A DNA stretch of 64,000 nucleotides from Eledone cirrhosa (Eukaryota): positions 1 through 64,000 of the forward strand of contig CAXHJY010001441.1 in the NCBI GenBank assembly GCA_964016885.1, read 5' to 3'. The position numbers were made by a program, and so were the translations under genes. Numbering within the stretch: the stretch's first letter is position 1; the number at the start of each line of letters is the position of its first letter. Below the pieces are notes generated by a model, which saw only the letters and a program-made list of their open reading frames with translations, had not been told where the DNA came from and made no database searches. This document shows positions 3,677 through 43,980 of this stretch, piece by piece.

Positions 3677-3724
3677 ATGCAAATTAGGCTGCTCAGCCGT
3701 TAATTTTCATAAGGAAAGTATATA
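3677..3724 (+). promoter_or_regulatory. Putative snRNA-type promoter cassette: octamer ATGCAAAT, PSE-like segment, TATATA
   Basis: ATGCAAAT at 3677-3684, CTCAGCCGTTAA, then TATATA at 3719-3724, 40 nt upstream of HHR stem I. The same layout occurs in family B. Confidence 0.45.
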
Positions 3725-3758
3725 CTTTCGAACGTTCAACCATCTGGCAGAAGGGTAT

Positions 3759-3801
3759 ACGGTGCTGATGATAGCTAACAAGCTTGAAACTAGTACATCG
3801 T
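3759..3801 (+). ncRNA. Minimal type I hammerhead ribozyme (family A)
   Basis: ACGGTG-CTGATGA-tAGCTaacaAGCTt-GAAA-CTAG-TA-CATCGT; palindromic stem III; GUA cleavage triplet. Confidence 0.85.
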
Positions 3802-4179
3802 TCCTGTGTCAGTGTTGAACAAAATGGTGACGTGGTTGCCTTAACACCGTACGGCATAAATTCAGGCTGTTCAGTTTGTTTACAAACGAACAAAGCGGGC
3901 GCTATAATAAGCGTCCTCTAAACTGATACGTACATATATGTATGTGTACCTGTATATATATATATATATATATATATATATATATATATATATATATATA
4001 TATATGCATGCTACTGTACGTCTGTATACATATATGTATGTACGTATACATACATACTTACATTTAAGTAAGTGCCGTACTAAGAGTGAGAAATGAAATT
4101 TCGTTTTCATTTTATTACAACTATATATATATATATATATATATATATATATATATATAAACATTTTATGAACGTTTAT

Positions 4180-4385
4180 GAATATTTTAGTTTGTGTGAA
4201 GTGTTAAGGTATTAGTTAATTTATTTATTAATTAACAATGGCACTTATTTATTTATATGTTTAATAATTGTCTATATTATTAATAGACAATTATTAAATA
4301 TATAAATAAATAAATAAATGCCATTGTTAATTAATAAATGAATTAACAAATACCTTAACTCTTCACACAAAGTAAAATATTTTTT
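4180..4385. repeat. AT-rich foldback (imperfect ~100-bp inverted repeat, MITE-like)
   Basis: TTTGTGTGAAG...AATAATTGTCTAT pairs with ATAGACAATTATT...CTTCACACAAA. Confidence 0.7.
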
Positions 4386-4701
4386 TAAAAACATTTTCTC
4401 ACCTAGAAAAGAGAGAAAAGAATAAAAGGGAAAAAAATATTTTCCTTCCTAATAATCCACTTTTCTCCCTATTTTCATATATATATATATATATATATAT
4501 ATATATTAGGTATAGGATTATCCAAGATGTAGTGATGGTTAATTACTACACTGGATATGGTTGACGTACGGTAAGAGGTTACTCTACGAGTTATGGAAGA
4601 ATTGTTCAAGAAACTTAGTTCCTGATCCTTCAGTGTTCCGGAGTGTATATAAAGAATGAATAATAACAGGTAGACATCATAAAAAGGTAGTTTATTCCGT
4701 G

Positions 4702-4813
4702 TGCTTACAAGTGTTTCCACGGTGGTGCTGCAGCCTAGTTCCGCTACGTGCAAATTCACAAGTATTTGCAGAACTCGAATATCCAATGCTGTGACCACTG
4801 TTTCCTCAGAGCA
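4702..4813 (-). ncRNA. Type I hammerhead ribozyme with extended stem II (PLE1 pLTR)
   Basis: Reverse complement of 7331-7442. Confidence 0.75.
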
Positions 4814-5266
4814 GAATGGTAAATATACAATGTAAAAACCCTTAAGTGGGGTTGTTGGGGAAGATAGAGTGGAACAGGAAGAGAGAAAAGTAGGGAAGAA
4901 GGAGAGAGTGGCTTGTAGATGTCTTAATCAAAATGTTATGGTAGGGGTTTTATTAGTTACTTTTGGAGAGATGCGTAGATAGTTGAGGTCGGAATTATTT
5001 ATTGCCCCAGAGGGCAGGTTCATAAATGTTGAGAGGGAGGTAGGTCAAAGGTGAGAGAGAGAGTGTGTAATGGATGTAGAGAGAGATATATAGGTAGAGA
5101 GGGGACAGATAAATATGTGTGGTGAGTGAACTTTTGGTTTTGTAGTAGTATTCTAGGAGTTGTACTGAGTTACCATGTATAGTGATAAGCAGTGTATTGT
5201 CTTGTAGTGTGGGGGGAAGAGAAGGTTGTTAGCTAGAAAGTGGTGTTGTAGTTACGGGTTCGAATG

Positions 5267-41381: not shown

Positions 41382-41596
41382 TATTACTCCAAGATAAACT
41401 TACATAGGAATACAAGAGCACTCATAAACTCCCCACCTATCGAAACCATTTGTTGAGTCAAAAAACGCCGTACGCTAAAGCTATCCACAATACGAAGTAT
41501 TCACCACCTCTAACTGGATTACCTACAACGATATTTTGTTATACCTTATATAACTATATATATAGATAGATATATATATATAAAGAGAGAGAGTGA

Positions 41597-42325
41597 TACA
41601 TATATAGATATAGTTATTATTTAGAAAACGTGAGAGAAACACAAACACGATTGTCCTTCTGTTTGCGATTCTCTCACGTTTTCTAAATATTATTTATTAT
41701 AAACCACACAGCGCAGTTCTCACCTATTTAATATATATATATTTGTAAGTATTGCACCAAGAAAAATAAAACCTCGGCGCGGAGAGCTTATTAATTTATT
41801 TGCTTTGACATATGTTTCCGTGTCTATTGTAAATTGTCTACATATACTGACTACAATATATATTGTTCAATCATATGCAATATATATATATAAATATATA
41901 TATATATATATAAAAGAGTCAAGACCCCGACGGCTGAGCTCTGGCCGTTTCGATAGTTCGAATCTAGCTGTCGAAATGGCCGGAGCTCAGCCGTCGGGGT
42001 CTTGACTCTTTTATATATATATATATATTTATATATATATATTGCATATGATTGAACAATATATATTGTAGTCAGTATATGTAGACAATTTACAATAGAC
42101 ACGGAAACATATGTCAAAGCAAATAAATTAATAAGCTCTCCGCGCCGAGCTTTTATTTTTCTTGGTGCAATACTTACAAATATATATATATTAAATAGGT
42201 GAGAACTGCGCTGTGTGGTTTATAATAAATAATATTTAGAAAACGTGAGAGAATCGCAAACAGAAGGACAATCGTGTTTGTGTTTCTCTCACGTTTTCTA
42301 AATAATATCTATATCTATATATGTC
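41597..42325. repeat. Near-perfect ~730-bp palindrome with nested hairpins and half-hammerhead motifs
   Basis: Arms of ~360 bp centred near 41962. The ORF track gives the same peptide on both strands (41805+ and 42117-). Each arm contains an inner inverted repeat, TTAGAAAACGTGAGAG. Confidence 0.9.
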
Positions 42326-42477
42326 TCTCTCTCTCTCTCTCTCTCTCTCTCTCTCGGCCCACGGGGTCCTGACTCTTTTTCTATTACCCACTCTACTATC
42401 CTGAGTATCGAGTACTCTGGTACGTTATGGTCCACCTGGTTTCTTACCACACTTTCTTTGCTCACTTTCTTTGCTCA

Positions 42478-42775
42478 TTTGTTCAATACTGACAAAGGAA
42501 CGCTGTACTAGTTTCAAGCTTATTAGCTATCGTCAGCAACGTATACCTTCCTGACAGATGGTTGAACGTCTGAAAGTATATACTTTCCTTATGCATATTA
42601 ACGGCTTAGCAATCTAATTTGCATATCAAGTGGGTTAATCGGCCGGGGTACCGAAAACGATAAACGGAAATCATGAAACGAGATTTCATTTCTCACTCTT
42701 AGTACGGCTGTTACTTAAATATAAGTATGTATACATACATACATATATGTATACAGACGTACAGTAGTATGCATA
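42478..42775 (-). mobile_element. Family A HHR element, diverged subfamily
   Basis: Homologous to 3210-3510; retains ATTTGCAT (~42617) and TATATA. Confidence 0.8.
42500..42542 (-). ncRNA. Minimal type I hammerhead ribozyme (family A')
   Basis: Minus strand: ACGTTG-CTGACGA-tAGCTaataAGCTt-GAAA-CTAG-TA-CAGCGT. Confidence 0.85.
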
Positions 42776-42853
42776 AATATATATATATATATATATATAT
42801 ATATATATATATATATATATATATATATATATATATATATATATATATATATG

Positions 42854-43505
42854 GATACATTTTATTACTAATTATATCTAACTGTTTCTTCTCTCTTCAT
42901 AATGTATTTTTAACTCTGATACTGGTTCAGTCTAATTCAACCGGATTGGTCTGTCCCAGTCATTCATTGAGCAACATCGGTAAGGTTGGCACCATTAACT
43001 CACGGTTGGGTGTGGATGCATTCATGTATATGTGTGTGTCCGCATGTATCTGTGTGTTTCTAAATATATTGTTCATAACTCCCTCTGGTCGAGTAATCTT
43101 TGAAGTGTGGTGACTGCTGGAAAGCTGCCATTACTCATACTTCTCGCCTCCTTCACCACCTCTTCTACGGCTTCGATATAAATACCCCCTCCGCCTCCGT
43201 GGTATTTTCTTCGGGGTTATAGGAGGCTTAGCTCTGTTTCTCGACCGTTATATCGCGTGACTATCTCCCCCTCCGCCTTTTGGGATTCTTTCTCACGTCG
43301 TGTAGACGCGTTCTTGAAGCTAGTAAAATGAGGTATCCTCTTGATAAGTCGGCAGACCTCGCAAGGACTCTATATCTTTATGATGTATTGTTTTTGTTTA
43401 TGCCACGAAACTACGTAGTCGAGGAATCTAGGAGCAGTTTAGGTATGATACATTTTATTACTAATTATATCTAACTGTTTCTTCTCTCTTCATAATGTAT
43501 TTTTA
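42854..43505 (+). mobile_element. ~593-bp non-coding HHR element with a ~57-bp terminal direct repeat
   Basis: GATACATTTTATTACTAATTATATCTAACTGTTTCTTCTCTCTTCATAATGTATTTT occurs at 42854 and 43447. TATAAATA at ~43177. (TA)n on both flanks. Confidence 0.7.
43336..43425 (+). ncRNA. Type I hammerhead ribozyme with U3-A8 core variant
   Basis: TCCTC-TTGATAA-GTcGGCA...TGCCAC-GAAA-CTACGTAG-TC-GAGGA. Confidence 0.7.
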
Positions 43506-43560
43506 TATATATATATATATATATATATATATATATACATATATGCACACATATATATAT

Positions 43561-43980
43561 GTACGTATGGATTCATAGAACATTTATTATAATGCTCGGC
43601 GTGTTAATATGCATAAGGAAAGTATATACTTTCAGACGTTCAATCATCTGGCAGGAAGGTATACGTTGCTGACGATAGCTAATAAGCTTGAAACTAGTAC
43701 AGCGTTCCTTTGTCAGTGTTGAACAAACGAGCAACGATGGTTGCTGGACACTACGGCTTAATTCGGGATGTTTGTTTACAAGCACGCCGAGCATTATAAT
43801 AAATGTTCGGTGAATCCATACGTACATATATATATATGCGTGCATGTATGTATATATGTATATATATATACATACTACTGTACGTCTGTATACATATATG
43901 TATGTACGTATACATACTTATATTTAAGTAACAGCCGTACTAAGAGTGGGAAATGAAATTTCGTTTCATGTTTTCCGTTT
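43561..43980 (+). mobile_element. Family A' HHR element with a short inverted 5' end
   Basis: 43561-43602 is the reverse complement of ~43785-43825. The body matches 3700-3880 and the tail matches 4008-4110. Confidence 0.8.
43663..43705 (+). ncRNA. Minimal type I hammerhead ribozyme (family A')
   Basis: ACGTTG-CTGACGA-tAGCTaataAGCTt-GAAA-CTAG-TA-CAGCGT. Confidence 0.85.

Follow-up and report, generated by a model that had tools for sequence, protein, structure and literature searches.

The window analysed here, a 64,000 nt stretch of the Eledone cirrhosa genome, contains two families of non-coding hammerhead ribozyme (HHR) repeats, A and B, in which an octamer is followed by TATATA and then by the ribozyme. 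This raises the question of whether a tandem repeat can carry its own promoter, of a class that normally lies outside the gene, within the unit that is cleaved and copied.

Cassettes in the window

For family A, the octamer ATGCAAAT lies at 3677-3684 (+) and is followed after 34 nt by TATATA (3719-3724) and further downstream by an HHR core at 3765-3789 (+). The corresponding cassette of family B has the octamer at 40767 (-), a 35 nt gap, TATATA at 40724-40719 and an HHR core at 40669-40644. These positions and spacings agree with the initial annotation. In both cases the octamer is part of a longer 12-mer. The family A 12-mer, TATGCAAATTAG (3676..3687, +), exactly matches the element that host U6 (L062) and tRNA-Sec genes have at -78/-80, and the family B 12-mer, TATGCAAATGAG (40757..40768, -), is identical to those of host U6 (L061) and MRP genes.

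The family A unit is ~520 nt long (3600..4122, +), its 3' end being just past the next unit's T-rich block and followed by (TA)n. The T-rich block upstream of its motif (3618..3645, +) has three T4 runs here and T6 or longer in 22/37 family A monomers, and one class of family A insertion 3' ends maps to it. A start site is predicted at ~3749 from the position of the host TATA at -30, and one at ~40694 (-) for family B. The family B unit (40519..40840, -) is 322-323 nt long and also ends in (TA)n. The hammerheads of the two units (3760..3800, + and 40633..40674, -) are both of the minimal type I: stem I is paired, the set of core nucleotides is complete and stem III is a 4-nt palindrome (CUAG and UGCA, respectively). 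By consensus rules, cleavage is predicted after 3795 (GUA) in family A and after 40638 (AUA) in family B. Neither ribozyme was called by Rfam, which gave no hammerheads among 85 matches. Minimal HHRs reportedly cut as dimers; a dimer form was not clearly seen on cofolding. Cleavage as dimers is the subject of a title cited in PMC7761336.

Several further copies are present. An inverted 5' copy of family A at 3100..3433 (-), with its octamer at 3356-3349 and HHR core at 3268-3244, is 99% identical to 3600-3933 and, judged by this arrangement, is a Penelope-like element (PLE)-type inverted insertion; its cassette at 3356 (-) had been overlooked in the initial annotation. A second family A subfamily is represented at 42468..42852 (-; 12-mer 42625-42614, TATATA 42582-42577, HHR core 42536-42512), and a 5'-truncated family A copy without the octamer at 43593..43989 (+; TATATA ~43623, HHR core 43669-43693). 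Upstream of the family B unit is a partial B unit (40841..41187, -; HHR core 40991-40966), whose 5' inversion contains an octamer variant at 41080 (+). An octamer had also been noted at ~36990; it is present, but in a broken family-F-like copy (36900..37081, -; 76% to L146) in which neither TATA nor HHR follows the 12-mer (37000-36989). In the window as a whole, the octamer alone was not above chance (5 against 2.7 expected, a count reached in 14/100 shuffles), whereas the HHR core was found 12 times against 2.7 expected, a count reached in 0/100 shuffles.

Distribution, relationship and conservation of the families

Genome-wide, the cassette of 12-mer, TATA and CUGANGA occurred 19,067 times and its reversed pattern not once. 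The exact 12-mer was found 37,404 times compared to 623 for its reverse, with 5,886 occurrences in family J, and HHR cores numbered 31,187. Some 25,000 cassettes are intact, with natural spacer variants of 32-40 nt. Units repeat head-to-tail, have no ORF and each include a minimal type I HHR; unit lengths are 395-543 nt for A, 271-477 nt for B and 466-469 nt for J. As the initial annotation had proposed, the module lies inside the cleavage-to-cleavage monomer. As circles, monomers fold strongly (z -11, -3 and -9 against mononucleotide shuffles), these values being inflated by TA-rich palindromes.

Families A and B each carry TATGCAAAT(T/G)AG, with TATATA 34 or 35 nt past the octamer, and the motif is common to at least nine families of different ages. 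The two families had been described as unrelated. It was found instead that they align collinearly (z 6.1) and are bridged by families E, K and F, so on alignment evidence they are distant homologues within a single old superfamily, whose members are non-coding tandem repeats with hammerheads. The octamer-to-TATA spacer is 34 nt in A, 35 in B, 33 in J, 35 in E and 36 in F, and reaches 39 in D and 39-40 in G; the TATA of family J is weak (CATATAA).

The 12-mer was kept across families while the remaining sequence drifted to the edge of alignability, although this retention is not independent, because the families share ancestry and were mostly found by motif search. Within family A, the octamer was off the commonest base in 1.5% of cases across 53 independent HHR-anchored clusters, compared to 10% and 14% in its flanks, a difference in the direction expected from the initial annotation. 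None of its 8 columns was variable, against 82/272 other non-core columns. This constancy is only suggestive of constraint. Position 11 of the 12-mer differs in a third of A clusters. The motif was absent from five flank-sampled HHR clusters (2-7 members each), among them that of an autonomous PLE's 3' HHR.

Match to host small-RNA gene promoters

The upstream 12-mer of host U6-class promoters, TATGSWAATKAG, is present in the elements in the same orientation. With 0-1 mismatch, and in this orientation at -77..-80, it was found in 12/20 host U6 loci, in 1/6 U6atac loci (the best-scoring one), in the single MRP locus and in 2/4 tRNA-Sec loci (the two strong hits). For the remaining U6 loci, a SINE replaces the 12-mer in 6, and two are dispersed copies lacking it. 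It was missing from the one RNase P locus, normally a type-3 gene outside insects (PMC4287351), and from all 24 U1/U2/U5 loci. These last instead have YCAGT (~-57) and AATTA (~-89) in 24/24 cases, and neither U1-class element was found in the A and B cassettes. The likeness to host snRNA promoters, a test proposed in the initial annotation, is strong and class-specific. An H2B-type Pol II octamer promoter, as a model from this genome's own histone genes, was rejected, since the octamer was missing from all 19 histone regions searched (8 H2A/H2B intergenic regions and the upstream regions of 11 H3 genes). We take the 12-mer to be an optimal POU site, and its origin by convergence rather than capture is therefore possible.

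The match does not extend to the whole promoter. The host octamer-to-TATA spacer is 38-40 nt and is matched only by the older families D and G, whereas the spacer in young families is 4-6 nt shorter. The host PSE signal is weak (T..CCT after the 12-mer), and 2/17 element copies exceed the 95th background percentile for it; the PSE-like words quoted previously are out of register with it. The elements show a version of the host T..CCT pattern shifted by one base.

Copied units are also not free of T5+ runs, which are present in 23/37 A, 3/6 B and 7/7 J monomers. In A, B and J, T5-6 runs, which should terminate Pol III, precede the following 12-mer by 35-55 nt, and family D has T5-8 runs immediately behind the HHR. 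The earlier assignment to a U6/H1-type promoter is not supported in its plain Pol III form, given spacers of 34/35 nt and T5-6 runs in the copied unit.

Insertion structure and association with Penelope-like elements

Copies show 5' truncation, inverted 5' copies and (TA)n targets, as is typical of Penelope. Family A/B copies were found joined to 5'-truncated PLE ORFs with 7-nt overlaps (microhomology) at L047 and L020 and abutting one at L220; the chimeric junctions support the earlier suggestion of copying by a PLE reverse transcriptase (RT), although co-integration amounts to these few cases. Pieces of PLE ORFs occurred in 7/57 and 7/69 element loci (partly overlapping sets) compared to 1/72 host-gene loci, which may be partly due to a common (TA)n target. 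PLE identity was assigned from tblastn among fragments and from RT/GIY-YIG motifs, which we presume to mark these fragments as PLE; Pfam gave one weak RVT_1 match for 8 fragments. In the two PLE lineages sampled, the 3' HHRs cluster apart from those of A and B and lack the motif.

Among body-anchored family A contexts, 61/78 reach the octamer and 0/78 begin within 7 nt of the cut site. Templates therefore span promoter and ribozyme, and a terminated linear RNA from start site to T-run was rejected as the main template. Where family B adjoins (TA)n, the T-run is T4 or shorter in 18/19 cases, while internal runs are mostly T6 (16/32). These junctions were not accepted as proof of Pol III ends, since target priming accounts for them equally. 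An apparent rise in depth from ~3756 in one run (X20) was set aside as a start signal, the four runs being of unrecorded kind and contigs being unable to show start, strand or level.

Proposed model and alternatives

Taken from sequence comparison, the most probable explanation, which we hold with reasonable though not high confidence, is an old hammerhead superfamily with a host U6-class 12-mer and TATA in each unit, this module being the element's own promoter. Each repeat would then likely drive transcription of its own unit and its neighbour. A POU (Oct-type) factor and TBP would bind unit n, and transcription would start ~30 nt past the TATA and run through hammerhead n, the body, promoter n+1 and hammerhead n+1. 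Cleavage would be by dimers of the minimal ribozymes, and the freed monomer would circularise. A Penelope-like RT/GIY-YIG protein would nick (TA)n, prime on AU- or U-rich parts and copy round the template, yielding tandem, 5'-truncated and inverted copies that again have the promoter. For the long propagating RNA, Pol II is slightly favoured over Pol III for two reasons: T5-6 runs occur within the copied unit, and in the young families the spacer has moved by 4-6 nt. Type-3 promoters are also active with Pol II, and U6 loses Pol III transcription when its spacer is altered by 5 bp (PMC6023835, PMC7949045). By analogy with human H1, the module may be dual-use.

A more specific version of this explanation is tentative: the elements would carry a gene-external U6-type Pol III promoter in a circularly permuted, ribozyme-cut monomer and so make it heritable by retrotransposition, which SINEs cannot do, with ancestral families keeping Pol III geometry and expanding families retuning the spacer to change polymerase use. 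If true, retrotransposition would have distributed about 37,000 POU sites across the genome.

It is rather unlikely that the module works as a genuine type-3 promoter for Pol III, from which most RNAs would stop at the unit-closing T-run, with a leaky minority reading through to give the propagating monomer. The occurrence of the motif only at Pol III-class host genes, the exact host spacer in D and G, the T5-6 runs that A, B and J have ahead of a following 12-mer and the short T-tracts at B/(TA)n junctions are all consistent with it. Terminated linear RNAs, however, would predict a pile-up of copies at the start or cut site, which was not seen. Family D has its T-runs just behind the HHR, T6 is kept in young successful subfamilies and the abundant families have spacers of 33-36 nt. 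Priming at (TA)n, anchored on AU past the run with one mismatch, would likewise give the T4 junctions, and the autonomous PLE ends are likewise T-rich without an octamer.

Less probable still is that the cassette does not work as a promoter, the elements depending on host read-through and the 12-mer and TATATA persisting by descent or as hairpin parts of a structured RNA circle. Retrozymes seem to lack promoters according to a 2020 review (PMC7761336), which has them rely on read-through. In A, J, G140 and others, a predicted hairpin has the 12-mer as its 5' arm; for A and J, the octamer is paired to a downstream arm over some 10/12 nt. The family A TATATA is the loop of a perfect palindrome, and the strong circular folding noted above, with its inflated z values, points the same way. 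However, the pairing partner varies by family (downstream, upstream or weak) while the 12-mer is constant. In a frequent A subfamily, an 8-nt deletion directly after TATATA removes the hairpin arm and the TATA is retained. Constraint on structure alone would not predict that the 12-mer is identical to the host U6-class element, is oriented as in the host and precedes a TATA.

A very improbable alternative is that the cassette belongs to an unsampled autonomous Penelope-like element as its ordinary pLTR promoter, with A and B as solo pLTR derivatives: frog retrozymes are related to PLE pLTRs (bioRxiv 10.64898/2026.07.22.740005) and the Penelope start site lies within its pLTR (PMC8557442), but the PLE 3' HHRs here lack the motif, queries from two PLE lineages found no PLE ORF in the ~5 kb preceding six lone octamer-HHR copies, and A and B units stand head to tail with no ORF.

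Relation to known systems

The families resemble animal non-LTR retrozymes (Cervera and de la Pena 2020, PMC7229834; Li et al., bioRxiv 10.64898/2026.07.22.740005) in consisting of short, non-coding tandem units that each have a type I HHR, in their low GC content (36-43%) and in their likely mobilisation by PLEs. They differ from the published elements in their minimal, PLE-type HHRs and in the longer A units (395-543 nt). Term searches of both papers found no promoter analysis. The initial annotation had considered the system undescribed in molluscs; retrozymes as such are already known in a mussel, Mytilus (PMC7229834), whereas no report of an octamer/TATA/HHR cassette in a mollusc was found in the open-access literature covered.

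The closest precedent is newt satellite 2 (Coats, Zhang and Epstein 1994, as summarised in PMC2220036), an HHR repeat with an internal snRNA-type promoter used by Pol II. It shares with our families the HHR tandem repeat and a snRNA-type promoter motif within the monomer, known here from sequence. The families differ from it in that their motif is of the host U6 class (Pol III) with a TATA rather than the host U1/U2/U5 element, is found in at least nine families and is dispersed by PLE-type insertions. The schistosome HHR satellite promoter reportedly consists of A and B boxes. In the account given in PMC2220036, that satellite (Ferbeyre 1998) has its own Pol III promoter, which is gene-internal, whereas the module here is of the gene-external class. 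Compared to type-3 promoters (U6, H1, 7SK), and especially the compact dual-activity H1 (PMC7949045, PMC6023835), the module is similar in having the octamer near the TATA and differs in having no clear in-register PSE, a young-family spacer 4-6 nt short and a position inside a mobile unit. The plant LTR retrozyme NbRZ1 also has a promoter in its repeat, but with a type III HHR and LTR structure, and its abstracts (PMC9695139, PMC12029980) report no snRNA-type motif.

The candidate promoter challenges the published view of animal retrozymes as promoterless, against which the newt result of 1994 had until now stood nearly alone, and would provide a route for mobility of an external snRNA-type promoter. 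It is defined to the base and matched to host gene classes, and its spacer variants make the transcription question directly testable. As a by-product, the analysis defined this genome's promoter elements of the U6 and U1 classes, which are useful for guide-RNA expression.

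Occurrence and conservation of the cassette

The initial annotation had placed an octamer, a spacer and TATATA ahead of the hammerhead ribozyme (HHR) in two short non-coding tandem repeat families, A and B, and all of these positions were borne out by the window sequence, which held an additional inverted family A copy at 3356. The octamer alone was no more frequent in the window than expected by chance. Across the 3.0 Gb genome, the whole cassette (octamer-containing 12-mer, spacer, TATATA and HHR) gave 19,067 matches against 0 for the reversed pattern, and the exact 12-mer occurred 37,404 times against 623 reversed; HHR cores of families A and B together numbered 31,187. 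The cassette is a real feature. Both ribozymes were minimal type I hammerheads with a paired stem I, a full core and a 4-nt palindrome as stem III, and are predicted to self-cleave.

Conservation was assessed in 53 independent family A clusters, obtained by collapsing at 5 kb a set of 94 copies picked solely by the HHR. Departures from the commonest letter were 1.5 % in the octamer, 10 and 14 % in its flanks, 6 % in the spacer and 8 % in TATATA, the last inflated by gap placement of an adjacent deletion. The better retention of the octamer than of its flanks is no more than suggestive of conservation within family A. About a third of the clusters formed a subfamily with an 8-nt deletion after the TATA and a change at position 11 of the 12-mer, and these retained the octamer and TATATA. 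The 12-mer pairs in predicted hairpins, with partners differing from family to family.

Comparison with host promoters

All 56 fetched host small-RNA loci were scored as a non-circular test. The 12-mer was present with 0–1 mismatch at −77 to −80 in 12 of 20 U6 loci (two exact, ten array copies with one change), U6atac (1/6), MRP (1/1) and tRNA-Sec (2/4); among the other U6 loci, six array copies had a SINE there instead and two dispersed copies lacked the motif. It was absent from the single RNase P locus and, with at least 4 mismatches, from all 24 U1, U2 and U5 loci. No octamer was found in eight H2A/H2B intergenic regions or at the 11 histone H3 loci examined of 16 fetched. The suggested likeness to host snRNA promoters was upheld for the U6 class, and at the sequence level the case for a U6-class module is strong.

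The U1, U2 and U5 genes carried YCAGT at −55 to −58 in 24 of 24 loci (L081–L090, L230–L235, L240–L247). AATTA was usual near −89, and in most of these genes a TATA-like box lay at −30, which sets them apart from vertebrate Pol II snRNA genes. At −68 relative to the Rfam start, the gene for RNase P RNA (L098, G000:C24:12936134), which is without the U6-class 12-mer, had the U1-class AATCAGT; it nevertheless terminates in a long T-run. Of the 16 copies fetched from the U6 tandem array at G000:C19:31.78–31.84 Mb (L063–L080), six had the SINE in place of promoter sequence beyond about −33.

Promoter function and polymerase

A U6/H1-type promoter had been proposed; the 12-mer and TATA match the U6 class, but the spacers and internal T-runs do not fit a plain U6 promoter. 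Octamer-to-TATA spacers were 38–40 in host genes, against 34 in A, 35 in B and, among the other HHR families, 33 in J, 35 in E, 36 in F, 32–36 in C, 39 in D and 39–40 in G; human U6 is reported to be inactivated by a 5-bp change (PMC7949045). Runs of T5 or longer occurred in 23 of the 37 monomers of A, in 3 of the 6 of B and in all 7 of J; most lay 35–55 nt upstream of the following 12-mer, and in family D such runs came directly after the HHR. This family (L131–L155) is old, its spacer of 39 equals that of the host, and a T-run and a 3′ splice-site-like TTTACAG lie just past its HHR.

Among 78 body-anchored family A contexts, 61 extended to the octamer, three began near the predicted start and none within 7 nt of the cut; the template therefore spans T-run, promoter and ribozyme, as expected of a circle or a read-through multimer. 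In 18 of 19 family B junctions the T-run was no longer than T4, against an internal mode of T6, which fits Pol III ends or else mismatch-tolerant priming. Type-3 promoters are reported to recruit Pol II as well (PMC6023835). The cassette likely acts as the element's own promoter; because of the spacer shift, the T5+ runs, the template extent and this Pol II use of type-3 promoters, we lean slightly towards Pol II for the propagating RNA. Newt satellite 2 is a precedent for a promoter-bearing HHR repeat; as cited in PMC2220036, the newt repeat has a Pol II snRNA-type promoter and the schistosome repeat a Pol III promoter.

Units, insertions and Penelope-like elements

Units were arranged head to tail in families A (395–543 nt, 37 distinct monomers), B (271–477 nt, six monomers) and the newly found J (466–469 nt, seven monomers). 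Family J is a young HHR family (L248–L267; G000:C1:5.738–5.752 Mb) with 5,886 exact 30-mer matches in the genome, arrays of ~30 units and CATATAA where A and B have TATATA. Element copies showed 5′ truncation, a frequent inverted 5′ copy and (TA)n at the end, features listed for insertions of Penelope-like elements (PLEs; PMC8557442). By landmark script, 96 terminal A units ended in the TA-rich block (46), at the T-rich block (39, a few of which continue into the next unit) or elsewhere (11).

Truncated PLE ORFs were fused to B at locus L047 and to A at L020, each with a 7-nt overlap, and directly abutted A at L220; A pieces were joined to B pieces at L044 and L152. Two partly overlapping sets of element loci held PLE ORF pieces in 7 of 57 and 7 of 69 cases, vs 1 of 72 host-gene loci. 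Shared insertion targets may account in part for this proximity; the A/B–PLE junctions are read as template switching by PLE RT, and together with the enrichment they favour the copying by PLE RT that the initial annotation had envisaged.

The window contained a PLE fragment at 4646–7498, with an RT C-terminus and GIY-YIG-like ORF (6463–5270, minus strand), within an inverted repeat of 1,050 nt without mismatches. Two further HHR families without the octamer lay at 2746–3075, 44158–44484, 8103–8237, 10016–10393 and 37273–37672; an autonomous PLE has the first of these families as its 3′ end.

Relationships among families and other repeats

The description of A and B as unrelated was overturned by a collinear alignment (z 6.1) that begins in the T-rich block, takes in the HHR and extends into the body, and by the bridging families E, K and F (z about 18–21 for A–E, 18 for E–K, 8 for K–F and 25–31 for F–B); by alignment, A and B are related to each other. 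The 12-mer was also common to families C, D, G and J, which are not independent evidence because most were found by 12-mer search. Among 20 motif sites sampled for a missing cassette pattern, nine were J and the rest A, K-like, lone HHRs or unassigned. The 12-mer was absent from the HHR families sampled via flanks without motif bait (five clusters, among them the 3′ HHR of an autonomous PLE).

Retrozymes are known from mussel, coral and axolotl, with PLEs proposed as partners (PMC7229834); in the available text of that paper, 'promoter' occurs only for T7, and the accessible part of bioRxiv 10.64898/2026.07.22.740005 contains no 'promoter', 'octamer' or 'TATA'. Promoters are described as apparently missing from retrozymes (PMC7761336). 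This cassette was not found reported in the literature searched, and we would class the elements as a variant of non-LTR retrozymes.

Other repeats in the window included several LINE copies at 20466–34016 (80–92 %) with APE/RT-like frames, a 197-nt repeat that presumably resembles octopus SINEs, and, at 45560–64000, a minisatellite spanning 18 kb, whose 47/48-nt units show higher-order periods of 143 and 191 nt.
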